Source: an uncultured Clostridia bacterium (GTDB lineage Bacteria; Bacillota; Clostridia; TANB77; CAG-508). From it: 64,000 bases of DNA. The stretch spans positions 12,869-76,868 of the forward strand of contig CALXCD010000002.1 of NCBI GenBank assembly GCA_944386715.1. Reading direction: 5' to 3'. Positions 3,510-56,943 of the stretch are shown here, in pieces. The stretch's first letter is position 1; every line of letters starts with the position of its first letter. A model generated the notes under the pieces. That model made no database searches. It worked only from the letters and a program-made list of their open reading frames with translations, and had not been told where the DNA came from. A program made the translations under genes and the position numbers.

Positions 3510-3765
3510 TACAAAAAGCTCGCCCCAATATAAGGGCGAGTTTAATTCTCACGGTACCACCTTAATTATTATTTTTCAATAATATCTTAATTAGCTTTTA
3601 ACGCAGCTCACACGGATATCTTACTTATATTTTCAGAATATCAACTAAAAAAGCTACCTTCTGTTTACCTTTTATTTAAGAAGCTTCCAGCCTAAGACTT
3701 CTATTCTCTAGAATTAAGTATAAACATACTCCTCTTTTTTCTTGTTTTTTATTATTGTGCCTTAA
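3510..3765 (-). promoter_or_regulatory. T-box leader (Val specifier) of valS
   Basis: On the minus strand: an AGAGA motif in stem I, and a specifier loop AAAAGGUAAACAG with the GUA codon at 3668..3666. The T-box sequence AAGGUGGUACCGUGAG is at 3563..3548. The terminator CTCGCCC-N8-GGGCGAG plus U-run is at 3540..3519. Confidence 0.85.
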
Positions 3766-6810: not shown

Positions 6811-7749
6811 TCATATAGCTTCCTTCAATTTTTTTATATATTCTATATCATCTATTTTTGAAATTGCAAAACATTTCTTTCCCAAATCTTTTAATGATGC
6901 TCCTATATGATACAGTTCTTTATTATCTATTACGATAAATCTATCATGAAACTTATTCGTCATTGCTACTTTTAAGGTTGGATATTGTTTATTAAATTTA
7001 TTTATATCCAATTTATTCAAATTACTATTTTGCGAAGTCAAAATCACAACTTTTACATTTTTATTTTTCTTTGATAACATTTTCAAAATACTATCATCTA
7101 TGTAATTATCAATAATTAATACTTTTTGTTTTGCTTTCTTTATAATATCTATAACTAAAATATATGCATCATAAATTTGTCCATCAAAAAATATGCTTTG
7201 TCTACATTCTGATTCTTGTTTTCTTTGCAATTCATCAAATACTTCGTCAAACTTCTTATCATGCTCTAACAATTGGTCTTTAATATTATTTATTTCTTGG
7301 AAAAATTGACCATTTGTAATTATAAATTTTCTCATTTCTATAAAAGCTTTCATAATGCTAATACTAACATTAACTGCTATGTCACTTTTTAGTAGCGCTG
7401 AAAGCATTGCTATTCCTTGTTCTGTAAATACATACGGCATATATCGTCTACCACCATAGTTTTGTTTTTCAAAACTTGAGGTGACAAATTGGCACCTCAA
7501 GTTTTGAAATTCTTTTTGTTCTAATTGAAAACAAAATTCCTTTGGAAATCTTTCAATATTTCTTTTTACTACACGATTTATATATTTAGTTTCACAATGA
7601 TATAAATTTGCTACATCACTATCTAGCATTACTTGTTTTCCTCTAATTGTATAAATCAAATTTTTTATGTTTTCTGTTTCATATTTTACTACATCTGATT
7701 CTTTATTTACTAGTATAATATTGTTGTCTTCTTTTTCCATAATTATCAC
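6811..7749 (-). CDS. ORF6N-domain DNA-binding protein with a C-terminal PLD-like (HxR variant of HKD) domain
   Basis: N-terminal region: IRGKQVMLDSDVANLY ... FPKEFCFQL ... NLRCQFVTSS ... GGRRYMPYVFTEQGIAMLS. C-terminal region: KVLIIDNYID ... FHDRFIVID ... GASLKDLG. Confidence 0.8.
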   Translation of the reverse strand: MIIMEKEDNNIILVNKESDVVKYETENIKNLIYTIRGKQVMLDSDVANLYHCETKYINRVVKRNIERFPKEFCFQLEQKEFQNLRCQFVTSSFEKQNYGGRRYMPYVFTEQGIAMLSALLKSDIAVNVSISIMKAFIEMRKFIITNGQFFQEINNIKDQLLEHDKKFDEVFDELQRKQESECRQSIFFDGQIYDAYILVIDIIKKAKQKVLIIDNYIDDSILKMLSKKNKNVKVVILTSQNSNLNKLDINKFNKQYPTLKVAMTNKFHDRFIVIDNKELYHIGASLKDLGKKCFAISKIDDIEYIKKLKEAI

Positions 7750-13734: not shown

Positions 13735-13749
13735 ATACTCACCTTCACT

Positions 13750-13825
13750 ATTTAGATATTTGTCTAAATAGATTTTACTATTTTAATTTTATAATGTCAA
13801 TAGATATTTAGAGATTTATCTAAAT
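13750..13825. promoter_or_regulatory. Two palindromic operator candidates ATTTAGA-N6-TCTAAAT upstream of the SdpR-like gene
   Basis: ATTTAGATATTTGTCTAAAT at 13750-13769 and ATTTAGAGATTTATCTAAAT at 13806-13825, 16-90 nt upstream of the regulator start. Confidence 0.6.
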
Positions 13826-14001
13826 AGTTTTATAAATAAAAAAATACCTATATTTCAAACTGTTTTTTACATTTATACAAGTCAATTTCCTTGAATTTTA
13901 CGATAAAATATAGTATAATTTAATTTGAATTATGTATTTGAAACCATAAAAGCAATCACTTGGAGGTTTCAAAGCCTCCAAAAAATTTTAGGAGGTTTGA
14001 C

Positions 14002-18445: not shown

Positions 18446-19276
18446 CTACTTTACAGTAGAGCTTTTTTTACCAACAACTGCAAACCTACCATCTTCTACA
18501 TGATAAGAACAAGTGGATAAAGTAATTAATTGTTCTGGATATGTTGCAGTTGTATCTATGGTATACAAAGATGCTTTTTTCGCATTTTCTACGAATTCAT
18601 TATACTCTTTTTCTGTTGGTGCATTTACAAAATAATAATATCGAAATACATTTTTTTCTGATTTATAATATACCCTGGATTTAAAAGCAGAAATAATTTC
18701 ATATTCTGCATCTTCCTTTTCTGTGGTAAAACGAATAACAGGATGTTCTTGATAAAATTTTTTATTTTCATATTTTAACAATTCTTGAAACATGGTGCCA
18801 TTTTTTAAATTGTGCCCATACATTAATAAGTTACTACTTGGCACTTTCCAATCATAATCTTTTGTTAAAAAAATAGAACCATTTTTAGATTTTTCCTTTT
18901 TATAATTATGTGTCATATAATATTCATTATCCGTACCTTGTAATACAGGATAATTGATACTGGTCCCTTCTATTTCAATCCATCCAATTATATCTGAATT
19001 TTCTTCTTGAAGTGTTTTTACCTGAAGCATTCTTTCTGTTTCTTCTTTTGTATCCTCATTTGCTTCCATTTTTATATCTTCTTTTATTTCTTCTTGTATA
19101 TTTTCTGGTTTTTCCTCTATCTTTATGGTATTTAATAAATTGTTCTCTTCTTCCGCTTCTTTTTTTAATGAAAAAAAGTCTATGATATATATAGCAGATA
19201 TGATAATAAGGAAACTAAAAAACAGAAAGATTAAATAATATAATACTTTGTTTTTTGCCTTTAAATTCTTTTTCAT
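18446..19276 (-). CDS. srtB: Class B sortase
   Basis: N-terminal TM segment; IGWIEIEGTSINYPVLQG ... MYGHNLKNGTMF ... LITLSTCSY (catalytic Cys). Confidence 0.85.
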   Translation of the reverse strand: MKKNLKAKNKVLYYLIFLFFSFLIIISAIYIIDFFSLKKEAEEENNLLNTIKIEEKPENIQEEIKEDIKMEANEDTKEETERMLQVKTLQEENSDIIGWIEIEGTSINYPVLQGTDNEYYMTHNYKKEKSKNGSIFLTKDYDWKVPSSNLLMYGHNLKNGTMFQELLKYENKKFYQEHPVIRFTTEKEDAEYEIISAFKSRVYYKSEKNVFRYYYFVNAPTEKEYNEFVENAKKASLYTIDTTATYPEQLITLSTCSYHVEDGRFAVVGKKSSTVK

Positions 19277-19388
19277 TTAACTCTCCTAAGATTATAATAA
19301 GAATCTGGCTCAGGCATTAGCAATCAAAGATTACAGCCTAAGTACCCCAGAATCTTGTTATCTAAGATAATAAGGATAGACATTTTGT

Positions 19389-20519
19389 CTATCCTCTTCT
19401 ATCCTTTTTTTTCATTAAAATAATAACTGTTGTTGAGAATAACATTACTAAAGTAGCAATTCCTAAATAGTTTTCTATACCAGTTTTTGGGGTTTCGTCT
19501 TTTTCACCTTTTCCTGTTTCTGGTTCAGGTACTACAGGTTCTGGTTCTGTTTTTGCTTCAGAAATTTTTGCATAAATTGTTGTATCAGCATCTAACGGAT
19601 TATTAAAATCAAATGCATTTGTAAATCCTGCATCTGTAAAGAATCCCTCTACTACCATATTTCCTTGTAATGTTACATGTGATTTTAATAAATCTTCTGT
19701 TATTGTTTTACCTGCATCTACTACAATTTTATTTGTTTGGTCATTTGCAATTAATGTTATCATTACTTTTTGCGAATCTGTATTAGGTGTTGCCTTTTCT
19801 GGTAAAGCAGTTTCAGAGATAACATTATCAGCAGCATCTGTTAAAACAACTTTATCTCCTGTAACGGCAACTTTATTGGTTGTATTAGGTGTATTGGTTA
19901 TTGTGAATTCTGTAAGATGTCCATTTTCAGCAGCTCTAACTACATTTTCATTAGTATCAGATGTTAATACACCATTCATGACTAAACTTGGGTTATTGGT
20001 AGCAGCAGCTCCTTTGTCTATTTCAATACCATTATTAGCCCCTGTACCATTATATCCTAAATGTAAATTTCTTACTTCTACATTACCACCATTTGCAAGA
20101 ACTGCTCCATATTTAAATCCTGTAATAGAAACATTATCTAGTATTACAGTTGCACCATCATAAGATTGTACACCATATTTAGGTCCATTTTGTAAGTTTA
20201 TATTTTTTAGTGTCAATTTAGCAGCAGAGAATTGTGCTGTAAACATAGTTTGATTTCCTGATGTTGATGTCCAACTACTAGAACCTGTTATGGTATATCC
20301 ATTACCATCAATGGTCATTTCTTTAGCAATTACAATAGGTTTTGTTACTGTTATATTGCTTTGTAAAGTGACAGTCGCTCCTACATCTGCACTTGAAATT
20401 GCATTATTTAAAGATTCTTCATCTGTTACAGGTGTTTGAGCATTACTGAAATTTGGGATTACTAAAAATATAGTAAGTATTAATAAGAAAAACATGATTA
20501 ATTTTATTGTGTTTTTCAT
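19389..20519 (-). CDS. Sortase-anchored surface protein with a right-handed beta-helix region
   Basis: Signal peptide; repeats such as LTLKNINLQNG / VILDNVSITG / VEVRNLHLG. C-terminal sorting signal TPKTG + hydrophobic segment + KKKDRRG. Confidence 0.8.
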   Translation of the reverse strand: MKNTIKLIMFFLLILTIFLVIPNFSNAQTPVTDEESLNNAISSADVGATVTLQSNITVTKPIVIAKEMTIDGNGYTITGSSSWTSTSGNQTMFTAQFSAAKLTLKNINLQNGPKYGVQSYDGATVILDNVSITGFKYGAVLANGGNVEVRNLHLGYNGTGANNGIEIDKGAAATNNPSLVMNGVLTSDTNENVVRAAENGHLTEFTITNTPNTTNKVAVTGDKVVLTDAADNVISETALPEKATPNTDSQKVMITLIANDQTNKIVVDAGKTITEDLLKSHVTLQGNMVVEGFFTDAGFTNAFDFNNPLDADTTIYAKISEAKTEPEPVVPEPETGKGEKDETPKTGIENYLGIATLVMLFSTTVIILMKKKDRRG

Positions 20520-20663
20520 TTTTTCACCTCCTTATTAATTCTATTTTCTCTCTTTTTCTTCATTTTTATTTATTTTTTCTTAAATTTTTTAAATTAAATT
20601 TTTCCAGTATAAATAGTATTTTTAAGTGATATTTCTTATCACTTAAAAAAAGATTAGTTTTAT

Positions 20664-21635
20664 CTAACCTTTTTCAAATATGATTAAAGTTACACTGTTC
20701 CAAAGCATCTTCCAATAGAAATTTTTTGAATCTTTATTCTCATTTTCTAATTCTTCTTGTTTAGATGATTGTTCCACTTCCTGAACACTATTGGTTGTAG
20801 ATAATAGTTCTGGGTGTTCTTGATAAATTTTATTTAATTGGTTTCGATTTGCTTCTTGTTCTTCTTGATATGTTTTTTCTTCTTCTGCATTTCTTTTATA
20901 AACATCAACTGTATATATTTTTTGAGTTTCTCCTCCTTTTGAGGTAACTGTAATAGATATGGTATTGTTCCCTTCTTTTAAATCTTTATTTCCTATGACA
21001 TTAACTGTATTCTTATCGTTTTGTGGTACTGCTAATATTTTTATATCTTCTGTTGCATTAGAAATTTCTGCCTTATAATTAGTTATATTAGCATCAAATG
21101 GTGGTGTTAATAATACATTTTCTATCGCTAGGTTTTCTAAATTTGCATTTATTTCCTCCGCTTCTGTTGTACTTGTACTAACATTGTTATCTTCTCCAAT
21201 GGAAATCGTAACATTTTGAAACTCTGTTTCTATTTCATTTCCATTTGCATCATAAAATTCTCCATTTAATACAAAATTACAAATACCTTCTCCTATGGCT
21301 TTCCATTTAAAATTTGCAATAATGCCGTCTATTTCATTTAGTCCGCCAGTTTCATCATACCAAACTTTTGTTACTTTATTTCCGCTAATAGAAGTATTTT
21401 CATCTTGCTTAATATATTCCACTTTCGTATCATCAAAATAGATTTCTAGGTTATATGCAGCACATTTACTACCTTGTATCAAAATATTGATTTGGGTTTC
21501 CTCTTCTAATTTTATATTGTTTTTTGTAGTGGTTGCTGTTACTTTCGCACTTGCTGCAATACTATTAGAAAAAGAAAGTACAATAAAACTTAAGGTTAAT
21601 ACTATAATTTTATATTTTTTCATTTTAAAATTCAT
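20664..21635 (-). CDS. Cohesin-like + cadherin-like beta-sandwich surface protein
   Basis: Signal peptide. The N-terminal module (QINILIQGSKCAAYNLEIYFDDTKVEY...) is cohesin-like. The middle segment NLAIENVLLTPPFDANITNYKAEI...YTVDVYK is a cadherin-like beta-sandwich. The start could be 21635 or 21623. Confidence 0.7.
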   Translation of the reverse strand: MNFKMKKYKIIVLTLSFIVLSFSNSIAASAKVTATTTKNNIKLEEETQINILIQGSKCAAYNLEIYFDDTKVEYIKQDENTSISGNKVTKVWYDETGGLNEIDGIIANFKWKAIGEGICNFVLNGEFYDANGNEIETEFQNVTISIGEDNNVSTSTTEAEEINANLENLAIENVLLTPPFDANITNYKAEISNATEDIKILAVPQNDKNTVNVIGNKDLKEGNNTISITVTSKGGETQKIYTVDVYKRNAEEEKTYQEEQEANRNQLNKIYQEHPELLSTTNSVQEVEQSSKQEELENENKDSKNFYWKMLWNSVTLIIFEKG

Positions 21636-21708
21636 TCCTTTCTTACTTTGCTCTAAACACATACATTGATTTTTGTTGGAATTCATAATTGTCTTATTAT
21701 GATATTAG

Positions 21709-21797
21709 AAAATCTGATATATAGCTATTTGAAAATCAAGACCCAGATTGTTACACCCCAGCTATGTTTTGATTAAAAATAGCTATATATCAGGTTT
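21709..21797. repeat. Conserved-core hairpin, copy E1
   Basis: Stem AAAATCTGATATATAGCTATTT.. / ..AAATAGCTATATATCAGGTTTT, with the core at 21737-21771. Confidence 0.9.
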
Positions 21798-21821
21798 TTA
21801 TTAATTGTTATTAATATTATT

Positions 21822-21980
21822 GTTGCAATTCACAGCCGTTTTATATAATATTAGAAAAGCCTGATATATAGATATTTGAAAATCAAGACCCGGATTGTTA
21901 CGCCCCAGCTATGTTTTGATTAAAAATAGCTATATATCAGGCTTTTCTGAATTATTAACTTATTTACTGTGAATTGTAAC
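21822..21980. repeat. Conserved-core hairpin with an outer GTTRCAATTCACAG inverted repeat, copy E2
   Basis: Outer IR GTTGCAATTCACAG (21822-21835) / CTGTGAATTGTAAC (21967-21980), inner hairpin 21853-21948, core 21884-21918. Confidence 0.9.
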
Positions 21981-22007
21981 ATATTATTCTTTGCAAACTA
22001 TTCTTTT

Positions 22008-24270
22008 TTATTGCTCTATTGTTTTTAGCCCCAAAATATGTCTTTGTATTAGTAATAAATCAACAGATGTTGGTTTCTTTCCATTTTTATTGATATTTCC
22101 GGCCTTTTGGTAAATAGGTTCTAGGAATTGAAGTTCTAGAATATGTCTTTGTAAAACTAATAAATCCACACTATTTATTCTTCCATCTCCATTGACATCT
22201 CCATATAAAATAAATTCATAACTTTTTAATAAATTTTCGTTTTCTTTTATTTGTAGTTTACAGTTGGTTCCTACTTTATCTTCATTTGACAAAGCTTCAT
22301 TTTTACTATTTACGATTTCTGTTTCTAAATTGGTTATGATATTTTTCTTTATTTCTGAAACCGTATTGTTGTTGTCAGGAATTCCTGTTATATAGATTTC
22401 TTGATGTTTTAGTGGTTCTTGAAAAATAATTTCATTTTCCCCTAAATTTCTTGTTACAATAACATGACATTCTGTTTGGATATTATTATTTTCTTCTGAA
22501 ATAACTTGTATTTTGCTATTTCCTTCTATGAGAGCTGTAATTATTCCATTTTCATTTATTGTAAGCACATCCTCATTTTCTACTTTATATAGGATATTAG
22601 GGTTATCCGCATCTTCTGGTTGTACTTTAGCATTTAAAGAATAAGTTTCTCCCACAGAAAGATAAATTTCGCTTTCTTCTAATTCTATTCCTGTTACTTT
22701 ACTTGTTACCTGAATAGATATTGTTCCCTTTACATCGCTACCTTCTGCTTTTGCTGTAATAACAGCTGTTCCTGCACGTAGTGCTGTGATATTCCCTAAA
22801 TTATCTACCATGACAATAGAAGAATCACTAGAAGACCATTGTATTTTATTATCCTTTGCTTCTACTGGAAGGATTTCTATCTCTATTTTCGCCTTTTCCC
22901 CTTTAGAAATTATTGGATTGTCTATTTTTAAATGGATTTGTTCAATTGGCATAATAGGAGCGGTTTCTGTTACATAGTTTTGAAAAATATATCCAATGAT
23001 TCCATTTTCTAATTTTACTTTGTCCCATTTTTCTCCATTTTGAATACCTTTTCCTATTCTTGTCATTTTATCCCATTGATTTACTTGTGTAATGACCTCA
23101 TAAGAGGTACTTGGACCTGTCCTGATATTCACTTTTGAGCCATTAGAATATACAGTTGTATTATCTGTTTGATAATCTGATTCTAAAATATTAGGATTGC
23201 TTGTTGCAATCTCAGGCATATTATTGTAAATAGGAATAATAAAGTGCATTGGGGAATCTATTAATCCATTATTTTTATATCCTTGATAAATCGATTTTGA
23301 TTCACTATATGGTGCTAAAACATTTGTCATGTATTGATGCCAAAATAGTTCTCCTCCTTTTGTATCTGTTACATGAAATTTTTGAAAATAAACTGTATTT
23401 TGTCCTACATTGATATAACTAGAACCAATAAAAATTCCTCCACCTGTAATAGCTTTTTCTTTATTATCCCATGGAATTAGGTATTTATTTTTTGTTTCTT
23501 GACTAGCACCTTTTCCATCTCTTGCATATTTTAATCCATTGATAATCGCTCCCATTGGCTCTGCTGAACTTGTAGCACCAATATTATAAAAATTATATAA
23601 TCCCTTAAATCCTTCTACTGTTCCGCTAATAGAACTGTGAGATAAGAATGGTCCTACTTCTTGTTTGATACGGGATGCTAAATGATAAGGGCTTACCTTG
23701 GAGGTAATTGCTGCTTTTAATATTAAATCAGCATAAGTTTCTTCCATATTGTAATTATTTCCGGTTGCTATCCAGATAGCTTACTTTTTGCCTATAAAAT
23801 TCTGTTCCATATAATATTTTTTCAATTCCTTCTATTTGACTCATATTACTATCATAAGACAATGTCTCAAATTGAAAAATTCTAACTTCATTTAAAAAGT
23901 TTCTTGGGTCCATACAATATTCTACTGCTTTTTTGGATGCATCTACCCATCCAGCATCTACTTCTACATTATATTCTCCTGGTTTTGTATTTTTCCAATT
24001 ATCGGAATAGTTTTTAGGTACTAAATTTTTTCCAAATATGTTTTCTTGTTCTATTACATAATTCCAATCCAAATTCGTATATAGGGCTGTAAAACTCCAA
24101 TTAGGATGTTTGTTTTTTAATTCTTGCAAATAAGGTTGATAGGTACTCGGAAAGATTTCAATATCCTTACTTTGCTTTTCAGAGGCATGTGTAAAAAACA
24201 TCATACTGAAAAACAAGATGACTAATACACTACATAGAATAAAATATTTGTATTTTTGTAAAAATTTCAT
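22008..24270 (-). CDS. Secreted N-acetylglucosaminidase (GH73-type) with SH3-like, two Big_2-like modules and a C-terminal type-I dockerin; split by an apparent frameshift
   Basis: ORF 23755-24270 carries the signal peptide and N-domain. ORF 22008-23747 carries the catalytic region (VSPYHLASRIKQE), the Ig-like repeats and the dockerin DVNGDGRINSVDLLVLQRHIL / NKNGKKPTSVDLLLIQRHIL. The ORFs are 7 nt apart in different frames. Confidence 0.8.
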
Positions 24271-24920
24271 TTTTGTTCATATCCTTCCTCAGGACTTGCT
24301 TTTACAATAATTCTTTCTTTGGAATCTTTTGTACAAGTGATTAATGTGGTTTCTATTTTTCCATTTGTTTTTTGTGATAAACATTTTGTCTGTTCTGGAA
24401 AAACTGTATAAATATCATTTACTTTATACTCAATTTTTCCATTTTCATTATCAGAAATAAATAGGGTGTCTCCTATTTTTAATTTATATAAGTTTTTAAA
24501 CATATTGTTGTTTTGAAAATTATGTCCGACTACACAAAAATTTCCTATTTCATTTGGTTCAGTTCCCCAGAATTTAACAACTGATACTTGCAAAGCTTGT
24601 TCTGAATAATTTTTTAAAATATAGGTTTCCAGTTGAATGGTTGGAATTTCTAATTTCGCAATGACATCATATCCTTTCCATTCTTTTGGTACTTCACTTT
24701 CTAAAGGATGTTTTGCATTTTGTAGTAGCATTTCTTTTGTGGATATTTTTGTATCTTCTATTGTAGTATTTGTCTTACTTACCTGTATATTTTCTTTTAG
24801 ACTTTCACTTCTATTTTGTATCTTTTTTTCTTCATAAATATTCCATATTATCATTATCAAAATTCCGAGTAGTATTGTTAACAAAGTAATACTTATTACT
24901 AAGCGAACTTTTTTTGTCAT
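24267..24920 (-). CDS. Sortase (class A/D-like)
   Basis: N-terminal TM segment; IPTIQLETYIL ... VVGHNFQNNNMF ... TLITCTKD (TLxTC catalytic motif). Confidence 0.85.
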   Translation of the reverse strand: MTKKVRLVISITLLTILLGILIMIIWNIYEEKKIQNRSESLKENIQVSKTNTTIEDTKISTKEMLLQNAKHPLESEVPKEWKGYDVIAKLEIPTIQLETYILKNYSEQALQVSVVKFWGTEPNEIGNFCVVGHNFQNNNMFKNLYKLKIGDTLFISDNENGKIEYKVNDIYTVFPEQTKCLSQKTNGKIETTLITCTKDSKERIIVKASPEEGYEQK

Positions 24921-24984
24921 TTGCTTTTCCTCCTCGTGCTTTCTAGTTACAACTTTCTTTTTATTATATATTAAAGTTAGATTA

Positions 24985-25075
24985 AAAAACCTGATATATA
25001 GCTATTTGAAAATCAAGACCCGGATTGTTAAGCACCAGCTATGTTTTGATTAAAAATAGCTATATATTAGGTTTT
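24985..25075. repeat. Conserved-core hairpin, copy E3
   Basis: Stem AAAAACCTGATATATAGCTATTT.. / ..AAATAGCTATATATTAGGTTTTT, with the core at 25014-25048. A degenerate outer motif CTTAGTGAATTAGTAAC lies at about 25092-25108. Confidence 0.9.
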
Positions 25076-25128
25076 TATAAATTGTTAGTATCTTAGTGAA
25101 TTAGTAACGTTTTCTAAAAATTATGTGT

Positions 25129-26220
25129 TTATTTTTGTTTGTTTTTTGCTTTTTGGTTAAAATACCATATAGATATGACTAATAGTATTATCATAAATGC
25201 TATTGGAAGATAAGTGTTAATACCTGTTTTTGGTAATTGAGCTGGCAATTGTTCTTCTTCTTCATTTTCTGGTGTCATTTCTACTTCTGGAGTAGTTGGT
25301 GTTTCTTCAGGTAGCGGAACTGTTGTTTCTTCATTTTCGCCCGGATTTGTGTTTTCTGGTGGTGTAGGTGTTGTTGCAGTTTCTAATACTGTAAATTGGA
25401 ATGTTTCTTCTGCAATAACGTTATCAGAGTTATCTCTATCAATTAATTTTAAAGTAATGCTATAATCTCCTGCTTCACTAAAGGTCGCATTTACATTTAA
25501 AACTTGAGAAACATCTTTTCCTCCAATTTTATACCCTTGCGCATCTCCCCATCCACTTTGTATAATATCATGGTCTAATTGTGCTTGATCTTTTCCTATT
25601 AATGTTACATTTCCTGTTCCTGGCGTTGTTGCTTCTGCAATAAGTCTTGCATGCTCATAGTATTTCCCCATTGGTGAAGAATAAGATAATGTCATTTCTT
25701 TTGCTTCCCCTTTAATGATTTCCCCTGTATGCTCTAATTTTAATGTATAATCAATATATTCTGGTTCCACTGTTACATTTTTGACAATAGGTATGGTAAT
25801 GTCATCATAACTAACAGAGGCATCTGCATTTGCTAAACCTTCTGCTGTTACACTGAATTCAGTTGGATTTGATGTCGTGATATCTGCTTTTGCTCTAAAT
25901 GTTACACTCATATTTGTTCTAGGACTGGTTCCTCCTGTTGAATCATAAAATGTTACTCTTACTTTTGTAGATGTATCATTGGCAGTTCCTCCTTCTGCTG
26001 AAACATATTCAAAGATGTTATTATCATAAGCAATATCAAATGTATAAGCACCTAAATCTTGTCCGAATTCTATCATTACTTTTACTTCTTCTCCTGGACG
26101 TACTGTTGTTTTATCTGTTTGTATATCAATTCCTCCTAATGGTGCTGCATAACTTTTGATGGAAAATACAGTGAATAATAAAATAAGTAATATGGATATT
26201 ATGCTAATTATTTTTTTCAT
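25129..26220 (-). CDS. Sortase-anchored cohesin-domain surface protein
   Basis: Start MKKIISIISILL with AAGGAGGAA upstream. Cohesin-like module: VRPGEEVKVMIEFGQDLGAYTFDIAYDNNIFEYVSAEGG...VTFYDSTGG...VTFRAK. C-terminal LPKTG + TM segment + KAKNKQK. Confidence 0.8.
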   Translation of the reverse strand: MKKIISIISILLILLFTVFSIKSYAAPLGGIDIQTDKTTVRPGEEVKVMIEFGQDLGAYTFDIAYDNNIFEYVSAEGGTANDTSTKVRVTFYDSTGGTSPRTNMSVTFRAKADITTSNPTEFSVTAEGLANADASVSYDDITIPIVKNVTVEPEYIDYTLKLEHTGEIIKGEAKEMTLSYSSPMGKYYEHARLIAEATTPGTGNVTLIGKDQAQLDHDIIQSGWGDAQGYKIGGKDVSQVLNVNATFSEAGDYSITLKLIDRDNSDNVIAEETFQFTVLETATTPTPPENTNPGENEETTVPLPEETPTTPEVEMTPENEEEEQLPAQLPKTGINTYLPIAFMIILLVISIWYFNQKAKNKQK

Positions 26221-26357
26221 AAAAAATTTCCTCCTTTTTTGTTTTTCATTTCTAGTATGAGAATTTTTTTTATTTTGTATGTTAGCAAATTTTTTCTTTT
26301 TTTCTATTTTTTGGAATAAAATTGGCATGATAAAAAACTTTTGTCATAAAAAGAAAA

Positions 26358-33483: not shown

Positions 33484-34155
33484 ATGGGGAAATTTGATTC
33501 TATTTTAAAAAGTCAAACTGCAAAAAAGTATTATTCTTCTCATGTAGAAGATTTGTATAGAAAAGCACATATCTCAGGTGAGGTAGATTATGATTATTTT
33601 GAAAATTTAAATGTACAAGATTTACAAGATTATAATAAAAAGAAAAAATATAATTATGATTTAATATCTTTATGGGCAATTTTAGAAATGAGAAAATATC
33701 TTGATTTTCAATTAGGCAATACCTATAATCCTTATTTCTTAGAAGATAATAGCTTAGTGCCTATTAAAAATTTGCCAGATTATGATTATATGCCAGAAAA
33801 AGCAAGAGTGCAATCTTTGTTGGATATTAAATTTGTGAAAAAATTTATTCTAGAAGGGATTACTTTTAGTAATGTTTATATAGCAACTTATGAAATTATG
33901 GATATGAATAATGTTTTTAGACCTTTTGTCCAATTTTTTACAAAAAATGAATTCGGAAAATTTGTTGAAATTGCTTATGGATATGATTCTAATGATAATG
34001 GCAATGTGGAATTATTTATTCCTTCTTTTAATTATCCTGTATTTTTGACTCCAAAAGGATTTATTGGACTTCCTCTTTCAGGAAAATTTATTAAATTGAA
34101 TGTATATGATTACATTACAGAGCATGATATTGAAAAATTATTAAAGAATAGCTAA
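33484..34155 (+). CDS. Hypothetical protein
   Basis: The ATG at 33484 is preceded by AAAGGTGA. The earlier ATG at 33439 lies inside a TGTGATATAAT extended -10 box. I recognise no motif. Confidence 0.6.
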   Translation: MGKFDSILKSQTAKKYYSSHVEDLYRKAHISGEVDYDYFENLNVQDLQDYNKKKKYNYDLISLWAILEMRKYLDFQLGNTYNPYFLEDNSLVPIKNLPDYDYMPEKARVQSLLDIKFVKKFILEGITFSNVYIATYEIMDMNNVFRPFVQFFTKNEFGKFVEIAYGYDSNDNGNVELFIPSFNYPVFLTPKGFIGLPLSGKFIKLNVYDYITEHDIEKLLKNS

Positions 34156-34350
34156 TATTGCCAAGGGGACGTTCCTTTTTGGCAACTTTTATATCTTACT
34201 TTATTCAAAAAAGTTAATATATTAATATTGGCAGACAAAGACCCGGATTGTTATGCCACAGTTAAGTTTTTGTCTAAAATATTAATATATTAACTTTTAT
34301 TTTAAAAATATAAGTTGCCAAAAAGGAACGTCCCCTTGGCAATATTAGCT
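34150..34350. repeat. Nested palindromic element, copy E4 of the conserved-core hairpin family
   Basis: A perfect 38-bp inverted repeat at 34150-34187 / 34313-34350 (AGCTAATATTGCCAAGGGGACGTTCCTTTTTGGCAACT). Inner stem 34213-34294, core 34236-34272. Confidence 0.9.
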
Positions 34351-34388
34351 ATAAAAAAAGTAGCTGATTAAATATCGCTACTTTCTTT

Positions 34389-50529: not shown

Positions 50530-51390
50530 ATGAAAAATGAACTTATAAAAACAGAAATAATAGTAAAGGATACACCTATAAGTGTTATTAGAATTGATAA
50601 AACAGATTTTATATCATTAACTGATTTAGCTAAATATCAAAATTCAAGCGATCCATCTTTTACCGTAAAAAACTGGTTAAGAAGAGTTAGCACAATTGAT
50701 TATATAGGTCTTTGGGAACAGTTGCATAATTCTAATTTTAATTTGGTCGAATTCGACCAAATTAAAACTGAATATGGAAAAAATTCTTTTGCAATGTCTC
50801 CTACACAATGGATAAAAAGGACTAATAGTATTGGGATTATTGCAAAAGGTGGCAGATATAGCATTGGAACATTTGCACATCCAGATATTGCTTTTGAATT
50901 TGCAAGTTGGCTAAGTCCAGAATTTAAGCTATATTTAATAACTGAATTTGAGCGATTAAAAATTAATGAAGCATATCAAAATAAAATTGACTGGTCTGTA
51001 AAAAGGGAACTATCTAAAACTAATTATATTATTCATACAGATAGTATAAAAGAATTTATTGTTCCAACTCTAACTGAAAAACAAAAACAATATGTATATG
51101 CAAGTGAAGCAGATGTTTTAAATGTTGCTTTATTTGGAATGACAGCTAAAGAATGGAGAGATAAAAATCCTAATTTAGATGGTAATATTCGAGATTATAC
51201 AGACATTTTACATTTGGTTGTTTTAGCCAATCTTGAAAACTTAAATGCTGAAATGATAACAAGTGGAATTTCTCAAAGTGAAAGAATTGTAAAATTGAAT
51301 GACACAGCTAAAAAGCAATTAGAATTATTAAAAAATAGTAGTAGTATTCGTAGGTTAGAAAAAATGGATGAGAAATTAAAATTAGTGTAA
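50530..51390 (+). CDS. KilA-N domain-containing protein
   Basis: ISVIRIDKTDFISLTDLAKYQ ... NWLRRVSTIDYIGLWEQLHN ... GTFAHPDIAFEFASWLSPEFKLYL. Confidence 0.8.
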   Translation: MKNELIKTEIIVKDTPISVIRIDKTDFISLTDLAKYQNSSDPSFTVKNWLRRVSTIDYIGLWEQLHNSNFNLVEFDQIKTEYGKNSFAMSPTQWIKRTNSIGIIAKGGRYSIGTFAHPDIAFEFASWLSPEFKLYLITEFERLKINEAYQNKIDWSVKRELSKTNYIIHTDSIKEFIVPTLTEKQKQYVYASEADVLNVALFGMTAKEWRDKNPNLDGNIRDYTDILHLVVLANLENLNAEMITSGISQSERIVKLNDTAKKQLELLKNSSSIRRLEKMDEKLKLV

Positions 51391-54254: not shown

Positions 54255-54377
54255 ATTTATCCCTCCTTATATAAAAAAATATACCTAGATATCCGATGTA
54301 TTTTTGTACATTGTATATCTAGGTATTGTTTTTGTCAATAATTTTCTAAAAAATTATAAAAAAATCTTGCAATATTT

Positions 54378-54536
54378 GTTACTATTCACAGTAAATAAGT
54401 TAATAATTCAGAAAAGCCTGATATATAGATATTTGAAAATCAAGACCCGGATTGTTACGCCCCAGATATGTTTTGATTAAAAATAGCTATATATCAGGCT
54501 TTTTTAATATTGTATAAAACAGCTGTGAATTGTAAC
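54378..54536. repeat. Conserved-core hairpin with the outer GTTAC(T/A)ATTCACAG inverted repeat, copy E5 (hairpin flipped relative to flanks)
   Basis: Outer IR 54378-54391 / 54523-54536, inner hairpin 54410-54505, core 54441-54475. Confidence 0.9.
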
Positions 54537-54542
54537 TAATAT

Positions 54543-55190
54543 TTATCTAGCATCATCTTTTTTTATGTGTTGCATTATTTGCCTTTTTCTTTCTTGAAAA
54601 GTTTCGTATACTTTATTTATTGTTTCAAATTCATCATCTTTTTTATCAGCATGTAATGCTCTTTGCCATTTAGTTGTTATCCATTTATCATAATATTCTA
54701 ATTTATCTGTGTTTTCTAATTCTTCTAATTGGCATAATAATTCATAATCATCTTGGTGAAAAATAGTAGCTTTTTCTTCTATTCCTCTTGCTATATAAAT
54801 ACCTGCCGGATATATATATAGTCTTTTTGTTTTCACCATTTCTAGCATTTTTTTTTCTACCTGTTCTTGCATTTCTTCTTCTGTCATTCCTATGTCATAA
54901 CTAAAATAATGAGATGGGTCGTTTCTTCTTGGAGAAGGGATGTCATTTAAATCTACAAAACGGTAAAATTGTGTATATAACTGTGTAGCTCTTTTGACAT
55001 TTTCTTTCCAAAAAGGCTCTTTCGGAGTTGTATATTCTTGTCTTAAAGAGTAATTTTTATCTTTTGCCTTTTTTTGATGTAATTCATGGTTAGCAAAATA
55101 TATCATGGCTTCTAGTACTTCCTCTCTATTGTCATAGCCATAATAAAATTTTTCTTCTAATTTTTTTTCTAATTTCTTTTTATTAACCAT
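54543..55190 (-). CDS. Hypothetical protein
   Basis: 215-aa charged, soluble ORF located 18 nt downstream of rfbB. I recognise no motif. Confidence 0.6.
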   Translation of the reverse strand: MVNKKKLEKKLEEKFYYGYDNREEVLEAMIYFANHELHQKKAKDKNYSLRQEYTTPKEPFWKENVKRATQLYTQFYRFVDLNDIPSPRRNDPSHYFSYDIGMTEEEMQEQVEKKMLEMVKTKRLYIYPAGIYIARGIEEKATIFHQDDYELLCQLEELENTDKLEYYDKWITTKWQRALHADKKDDEFETINKVYETFQERKRQIMQHIKKDDAR

Positions 55191-56789: not shown

Positions 56790-56814
56790 TTTTATTTATC
56801 TCTCCTTTTTTGCT

Positions 56815-56943
56815 ATTGGTTCCAGGTTTGGATGCCAATTTTTTGGCATCCAAACCTGGAACCAATGCCAACTTTTTGGCATTTCAAACCTGGAACCAAT
56901 GCCAACTTTTTGGCATTTCAAACCTGGAACCAATGCCAACTTT
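56815..56943. repeat. Block of four 33-34-bp units (one inverted, three direct) between rfbA and rfbC
   Basis: The unit is TTGGCAT(C/T)(C/T)AAACCTGGAACCAATGCCAACTTT, at 56843-56875, 56876-56909 and 56910-43. The inverted copy at 56815-56838 forms a 24-bp perfect hairpin with 56843-56866. Confidence 0.92.

Follow-up and report, generated by a model that had tools for sequence, protein, structure and literature searches.

Miniature inverted-repeat transposable elements (MITEs) are known from several bacteria, with Correia/CREE in Neisseria, RUP in Streptococcus pneumoniae and bcr1 in the Bacillus cereus group as examples. The ERIC/IRU sequences of enterobacteria, which are proteobacterial, are imperfect palindromes of about 127 bp. 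Here, we have analyzed a family of intergenic hairpins in a 64,000-nt stretch of DNA from an uncultured Clostridia bacterium (contig CALXCD010000002.1, positions 12,869 to 76,868), hereafter called the window. The original prediction for this stretch described six hairpins with a common apical core, took them for a selected structure and not a mobile repeat, and could not assign them to any MITE. Pairing within the hairpins is indeed kept, but terminal inverted repeats and 8-bp direct target duplications, which lie outside the stems and were absent from the prediction, point to a mobile MITE. The six hairpins are very probably the centres of a non-autonomous MITE family with a unit of ~140-165 bp. 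The family is new, the kind of element is already known, and it is not a new RNA.

As in known bacterial MITEs, the elements are 100-200 bp long, non-coding, and bounded by terminal inverted repeats and a short direct duplication. Dispersed intergenic copies in both orientations, a long hairpin, subfamilies, and nested or tandem insertions are further shared traits. However, unlike for Correia, RUP and bcr1, no parent insertion sequence (IS) was identified, and plasmid and phage collections held no similar sequence. A 159-bp element gave no blastn match in these collections, and the 17 matches of the core 15-mer in IMG/VR viral contigs were all chance matches in unrelated higher-GC sequence. 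The centre of the new element is also at least as conserved as its termini, its subfamilies have arms that differ by compensated changes, and some copies have termini replaced by another palindromic repeat, none of which is typical of these three families. Correia duplicates TA, whereas the duplication seen here comprises 8 bp in AT-rich DNA.

Several other repeat classes share some of these properties. Like those of the new family, ERIC/IRU elements lie between genes in either orientation, have a conserved central region and maintain their hairpin by compensatory changes, but the sequences are unrelated, and ERIC is not defined by the clear termini and target duplications found here. Highly repeated intergenic palindromes that are sometimes clustered are typical of REP/BIME as well. 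The core hairpin of ~90 nt is nevertheless longer than the 20-40 nt of REP, lacks a GTAG-type 5' motif, and is accompanied by target duplications, and, in contrast to REP and its associated tyrosine transposase, copies were not seen on both sides of a transposase gene. A REP sequence with such a transposase, or a derivative of IS200/IS605, was therefore rejected on account of the target duplications, the lack of a recurrent neighbour and the lack of an HUH gene in the window. Structured RNAs in Rfam, including the hairpin-rich motifs from gut metagenomes, share the long hairpin with a conserved loop, but no family reached its threshold. A literature search gave nothing relevant to the family.

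The hairpin is only the middle part of the unit. Terminal inverted repeats of 11-14 bp (GTTACAAYTCA(C/G)AG and CT(G/C)TGARTTGTAAC) are found at a fixed distance from the core, with the outer inverted repeat 5'-GTTACAATTCACAG...CTGTGAATTGTAAC-3' located ~64 nt from it on the left side and 76-80 nt on the right. Short asymmetric spacers separate the terminal repeats from the outer stem, and the element is almost wholly one long imperfect palindrome without a spanning open reading frame (ORF). When the termini were used as the search seed, a core was adjacent to 21 of the 22 matches obtained in the sampled DNA. The single exception (L105 6940-7031) is a copy beside a tRNA gene from which the whole core has been deleted between two AGCTAT microhomologies. 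This copy is also chimeric, with its left arm from one subfamily and its right arm from another.

Immediately outside the termini is an 8-bp AT-rich direct target duplication. Among the 27 copies with both tips, from the window and related genomes, the two flanks agree at 7 or more of 8 positions in 16 copies and at all 8 positions in nine. In a control in which the same procedure was applied to left and right flanks taken from different copies, only 1.5% matched at 7 or more positions and 0.15% at all 8. In a stricter set, 6 of 10 copies matched at 7 or more positions, and the observed total was not reached in any of 100,000 permutations. The small size, the lack of an ORF, the terminal inverted repeats, the fixed-length target duplication and the many dispersed copies together identify the unit as a MITE.

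The locus at the centre of the original prediction illustrates both insertion and decay. The second copy of what was described as a tandem pair is a full-length, younger copy on the plus strand (21822-21980, core 21884-21918), with the left repeat GTTGCAATTCACAG at 21822-21835, the right repeat CTGTGAATTGTAAC at 21967-21980, and a perfect 8/8 duplication of ATATTATT at 21814-21821 and 21981-21988. The first copy (21675-21811, plus strand, core 21737-21771 of the CCCAG variant) is older and has decayed ends, of which the remnants GTTGGAATTCATAAT at 21675-21689 on the left and AATTGTTAT at 21803-21811 on the right are left. Two copies are thus present as predicted, but they are the products of two separate events, in which the younger copy inserted beside the right end of the older one with a perfect duplication of its own. 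Two more copies on the plus strand are full-length. The copy at 24946-25108 (core 25014-25048) has partly decayed ends, GTTACAAC... and ...GTGAATTAGTAAC, and a 7/8 duplication (GCTTTCTA at 24938-24945 and GTTTTCTA at 25109-25116). The copy at 54378-54536 (core 54441-54475) has a 7/8 duplication as well (CAATATTT at 54370-54377 and TAATATTT at 54537-54544). Compared with 21822-21980, the centre of 54378-54536 and that of the copy L024, including the arm mismatch, are flipped relative to the asymmetric flanks. This flip probably reflects gene conversion between oppositely oriented copies, for which the identical stems would provide the homology.

The remaining two copies in the window are variants, here called type I. 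The copy at 34148-34352 on the plus strand (hairpin body 34213-34294, core 34236-34272) lacks GTTAC ends and is instead enclosed by 45-nt inverted arms (34148-34192 and 34308-34352) that are 98% complementary and contain the palindromic unit TTGCCAAGGGGACGTTCCTTTTTGGCAA. The second type I copy, 577-796 on the minus strand (hairpin 651-738, core 677-711), likewise lacks the GTTAC ends and has outer arms at 577-618 and 755-796 with 95% complementarity. Between its hairpin and one of the arms, a terminal-repeat remnant is retained, GTTACTATTGAATAAAT (plus strand, from ~622). The copy is located where an Xer-like recombinase gene (ending at 584) and the valyl-tRNA synthetase (ValRS) gene (ending at 794) converge, so that one stop codon lies in each outer arm, and its spacing is unchanged in the strain contigs. 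The original prediction did not include these outer inverted arms. They are 42-45 nt long and hold TTGCCAARGGGGACGTTCCTTTTTGGCAA, and the palindrome continues for 6-11 copy-specific bases past them. The same architecture is found in BRZ_RS__bin5 with ~80% identity and compensated arm changes, and type I is therefore no one-off.

The 28-nt palindromic unit TTGCCAARGGGGACGTTCCTTTTTGGCAA also occurs as solo copies, never with a core nearby, at many intergenic sites in other metagenome-assembled genomes (MAGs) of low-GC uncultured Clostridia (L236-L267). It is an independent REP-like palindromic repeat, and the unit TTGCCAA..GGGGACGTTCC..TTGGCAA around two core copies shows REP-like behaviour in standing alone at many intergenic sites of other MAGs. 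In the type I copies, with their TTGCCAA..GGGGACGTTCC arms, this REP-like unit would have replaced the normal ends, and one possible route is outward extension of the palindrome by template switching.

Six copies are far more than expected in DNA of this composition. The window has a G+C content of 28%, with genes mainly on the minus strand, and GACCCGGATTGTTA with at most two mismatches occurs six times (695-708 on the minus strand; from 21740, 21887, 25017, 34240 and 54444 on the plus strand). Dinucleotide-preserving shuffles gave a mean of 0.11 matches, and none of 100 shuffles reached six. The core coordinates of the original prediction were recovered at all six loci, and direct reading of each locus showed the long AT-rich inverted repeat that it had described as capped by the core. 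A covariance model trained on 54 copies and run on the 64 kb with filters off scored the six loci at 97-114 bits and their opposite-strand images at 41-53 bits, and everything else at 25 bits or less. Hence, the window holds exactly six copies and zero degenerate extras. The prediction was also right that CCGG is retained in five of the six cores; the window has 15 CCGG in all, against 24 predicted from its base composition, and one third of them are these five.

The stem alignment comprises 54 copies from the window and related genomes. From the outside inward, the hairpin consists of an outer helix of ~18-20 bp, a conserved 3x2 internal loop (G-C/A-A opposite A-A), an inner helix of 9 bp (..CAAGAC/GTTTTG..) with a G-T pair, and a 23-nt loop. 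The stem is thus interrupted and not fully paired as had been thought. Within the loop, GACCCGGATTGT and ..AG-TATG are near-constant while ~6 positions in between are free to vary, giving the consensus GACCCGGATTGT + about 6 variable nt + CCYYAGNTATG. Folded as single-stranded DNA, 21822-21980 forms a single hairpin of -33.1 kcal/mol (z = -8.7).

All 54 stems align column for column, with ..ATATAT-NNN-TATTT.. in the left arm and the complement of this motif in the right arm, and 10 of the 18 pairs of the outer stem show at least 90% constancy. The three stem types that had been called unrelated are therefore homologous variants whose two arms changed together. The claim that stems vary while their pairing stays is well supported: 95.2% of cells are paired, compared to 77% in column shuffles and 33-48% with slid partners, double changes are found in 18 of 26 pairs, and none of 500 shuffles reached the observed covariation score. 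The centre, i.e., the 23-nt loop, the G-T pair and the 3x2 internal loop, is more strongly conserved than the arms.

Such compensated variation could indicate that the hairpin is a selected structured RNA, acting as a small RNA, as a cis element bound by protein, or as a bidirectional terminator or mRNA stabilizer, with the conserved apical loop as its functional site and with the mobile element as a mere vehicle or with copies maintained by the host. In addition to the strong covariation, the full element folds as RNA at -62.1 kcal/mol (z = -12.5), and the invariant G-T would be a G-U wobble on the core strand only. However, G-T and A-C mismatches are about equally frequent elsewhere in the stems (19 vs. 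17), and therefore no excess of one-strand wobble pairs is seen, which argues against a strand-specific RNA. Nor is there an orientation preference. Every true copy is intergenic, and among ~48 classifiable copies in the window and its relatives, 15 have both neighbouring genes opposite to the core strand and 14 have both on the same strand (29 with co-directional neighbours), while 13 lie between divergent genes and six between convergent ones. Each of the six window copies is located downstream of some gene, and this had suggested placement at gene 3' ends. In a co-directional array every intergenic region is downstream of a gene, and the suggestion does not hold as a rule given the 13 copies between divergent gene starts. 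With A-runs ahead of the stem base and T-runs behind it, the hairpin looks like a two-way terminator, but the stem exceeds 30 bp and carries a 23-nt loop. As a consensus scan of 21600-22050 also found zero intrinsic terminators, and as copies lie between divergent genes, an intrinsic terminator was rejected. The number of promoter consensus matches was no higher than in shuffles. The Rfam check that the original prediction had proposed gave nothing at the elements at gathering score or at E up to 10; the weak matches were generic plant miRNA-precursor hairpins with 17-26 bits against gathering scores of 71-184. Natural strains lose, fuse and half-delete copies without sign of constraint, and at least one copy (L082 6209-6294) retains a perfect 17-bp outer stem even though its core has decayed (CCGG to TAAG), which shows that individual copies are not all maintained. 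Collectively, these results favour a DNA-level element over a strand-specific RNA, and we regard RNA selection as a very improbable origin of the hairpins.

A different explanation is that the ~90-nt hairpin itself is mobile and that a structure-specific enzyme, either an HUH/Y1 protein of the REP-associated or IS200/IS605 type or a recombinase, reads the loop as extruded or single-stranded DNA, with the GTTAC-ended MITE as one carrier. This would fit the association of one centre with three or more types of outer sequence (GTTAC termini, TTGCCAA..GGGGACGTTCC arms, or none recognizable), the stronger conservation of the loop than of the arms, and the tandem arrays of the hairpin alone. Centres flipped against their flanks and chimeras joined inside the core (L028) point in the same direction, but both can be explained by gene conversion or crossing-over, as copies share identical segments of 20-35 bp. 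Likewise, a tyrosine recombinase gene abuts one copy, but it is a fixed, full-length gene beside only one of six copies. Single-strand transposition by HUH enzymes (IS200/IS605) yields no target duplication, whereas most scorable copies have ordinary termini and 8-bp direct duplications, and no HUH or other candidate gene is recurrent near copies or present in the window. Independent mobility of the hairpin is therefore improbable. That the family is an artefact of low complexity, chance or assembly has next to no probability. AT-rich palindromes are common in a genome with 28% G+C, and many weak ones were listed, but the excess of core matches and the gap between the scores of the six loci and those elsewhere, their own opposite-strand images aside, speak against chance, and independent assemblies of many samples contain the same loci.

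Further candidates were considered for the hairpin or its core. A hammerhead or other small ribozyme, suggested by the CUGAUA/GAAA look of one subfamily, was rejected because these bases are absent in other subfamilies and Rfam is silent. A DNA uptake sequence does not agree with a motif confined to hairpins. Recombination sites of the dif, lox or attC type have either conserved recombinase-binding arms about a short spacer of 6-8 bp or, in attC, conserved ends with a variable centre. In such a site, the variable arms and the conserved 23-nt centre would not be expected, and the Xer-like gene is beside only one copy. Site-specific recombination at the core is not needed for the chimeras and flipped centres, for which ordinary recombination or gene conversion between copies suffices.

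Returning to the MITE interpretation, the flanks show that copies were inserted by a staggered cut, with 8 bp of AT-rich target duplicated in the manner of DDE-type transposases. A DDE-type transposase acting in trans may therefore bind the GTTAC termini. Duplications of 8 bp are known in IS256, ISL3, IS6, IS66, IS1595 and others, and allow no choice among them here. A search of 1.3 Mb for inverted termini 0.5-4 kb apart with matching flanks gave none, only ends of separate MITEs. No transposase and no HUH protein was found in a Pfam scan of ~50 window ORFs, where the only recombinase was the Xer-like gene, and clustering of ORFs near copies gave no recurrent neighbour, only housekeeping paralogues.

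The arms may have been kept complementary by concerted evolution at the DNA level and not by selection on RNA. Candidate routes are intrastrand template switching and gene conversion, either between arms or between oppositely oriented copies; alternatively, well-paired master copies could have spread preferentially. Homogenization does not explain the conserved GACCCGGATTGT, the G-T pair and the internal loop, and some constraint must therefore act on source copies. The conserved centre might be a cis-acting feature of the element, such as an extra recognition site, as GGATTGTTAC in the core matches the right tip GAATTGTAAC at 9 of 12 aligned bases, a likeness that alone is not statistically convincing. 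Another possible role is that of an asymmetric spacer that keeps a long palindrome viable. We consider it unlikely that the apex (23-nt loop, 9-bp helix with G-T, and 3x2 internal loop) is a functional module of its own that is read by a protein as extruded or single-stranded DNA and spread by different carriers, namely the GTTAC-ended MITE, the REP-like arms and the bare hairpin. If true, the module would represent structure-dependent mobilization or a host-exapted function not described for MITEs.

Some of our results weigh against a simple MITE. About a dozen copies (e.g., L008, L061, L067, L091) have no recognizable termini or duplication, and a direct target duplication is not evident at either type I copy in the window. 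A clean empty-site allele of a GTTAC-ended copy was sought in the strain contigs, where only recombinational deletions were seen. No autonomous element sharing these termini turned up in the ~1.3 Mb of low-GC loci that were sampled, and mobilization in trans is therefore only something we infer. It is also unusual for a MITE that the centre, and not the termini alone, is the most conserved part. Automatic homogenization of the palindrome would erase asymmetries such as the G-T pair and the internal loop, and is thus insufficient alone, since both are retained in 54 of 54 copies. The conservation of the core is, however, inflated by the core-based seed with which copies were first gathered, which the terminus-seeded search corrects in part.

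The copies are sites of deletion, fusion and tandem amplification in natural populations. Genes of the window recur exactly in many gut metagenome assemblies, and the same loci are found in independent assemblies from many samples. While the 24946-25108 copy is present in 10 of 10 strain contigs examined, the tandem pair is fused to one hybrid copy in several samples, 147 nt shorter, by a crossover between the copies. Strain allele L208 of 34148-34352 is 158 nt shorter with a single arm unit left, and one strain allele of 54378-54536 has a 97-nt partial deletion. In the 2.3-kb contig L203 (ERZ2916437 NODE_30505), the gene at 54543-55190 is followed by half an element and then by sequence upstream of the gene at 20664-21686. 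Either 32.7 kb were deleted between two directly oriented copies, or the contig is a chimera that the assembly created at the repeat. In other genomes, chimeras join left and right arms of different subfamilies, and one-armed copies occur. Tandem arrays of the bare hairpin are found in BRZ_PM__bin58 (L049 5238-5492 and L037 6020-6255), with a period of 95-97 nt, 2.4-2.7 copies and 92-97% identity.

The distribution of the family is patchy among low-GC uncultured Clostridia near Clostridium sp. CAG:508. In an exact scan for the core with one genome per species, true copies, i.e., hairpin and core, were found only in low-GC uncultured Clostridia MAGs, and the remaining matches were chance 15-mers in unrelated genomes. 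The carriers include BRZ_PK__bin13 (with many copies), BRZ_RS__bin5, BRZ_PM__bin58, BRZ_FD__bin6 and Lapin-004__bin73, together with one Hadza MAG and two MAGs of Clostridium sp. Approximately 58 copies were counted in 255 kb of carrier loci, alongside the six in the 64-kb window. Compared with its counterparts in uncultured Clostridia MAGs, Clostridium sp. CAG:508 among them, the ValRS of the window has 65-79% identity. When the covariance model was run on 950 kb of sequence surrounding the ValRS gene in 80 relatives, it detected zero copies, even in the relatives whose ValRS is 79% identical. Downstream of ValRS, synteny is not kept in the orthologous region and the recombinase gene is absent there. 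Elements of the window and of BRZ_PK/BRZ_RS share ~85-93% identity, compared to ~72% at DNA level for syntenic genes.

At one orthologous intergenic site, BRZ_PK__bin13 has a core hairpin (L050 2056-2158) and the window has a different repeat. The latter is a cluster of a 34-nt palindromic unit, GTTGGCATTGGTTCCAGGTTTGAAATGCCAAAAA, with three tandem copies and one inverted copy at 56802-56941, between an RmlA-like gene and a dTDP-sugar isomerase gene. A relative of this unit is found beside the TTGCCAARGGGGACGTTCCTTTTTGGCAA unit in L259. A separate imperfect palindrome at 13747-13828, with 40-nt arms that are 75% complementary and a 2-nt spacer, is unrelated to the MITE family.

Positions 1-584 of the window (plus strand) contain the 3' part of the XerC/XerD-like tyrosine recombinase gene, which encodes 331 aa in L217 and L218, two strain contigs. 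The ValRS gene is directly preceded by a T-box leader on the minus strand at 3529-3751 (94.8 bits, gathering score 93), and this is the only Rfam family above gathering score in the window. Isolated phage-type regulators are located at 6811-7749 and 50530-51390 (ORF6N/Rha-like and KilA-N), and no further phage genes were identified in their vicinity. At 18446-26328, a series of cell-surface genes encodes two sortases and cohesin-domain, dockerin/Big_2/SH3, cadherin-like and pectate-lyase-like adhesin proteins, and three of the six elements lie in its intergenic gaps.

For screens of structured RNAs, the family calls for caution, as a repeated hairpin can show compensated 'covariation' without being an RNA. 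For researchers of mobile elements, the conserved centre and the termini swapped for a REP-like palindrome are minor puzzles. With roughly one copy per 10 kb in the window, the elements are, in practical terms, a reason for metagenome assemblies to be broken or chimeric and for strains to differ structurally. The family also adds an undescribed MITE to what is known of the poorly known, uncultured small-genome gut Clostridia near Clostridium sp. CAG:508.

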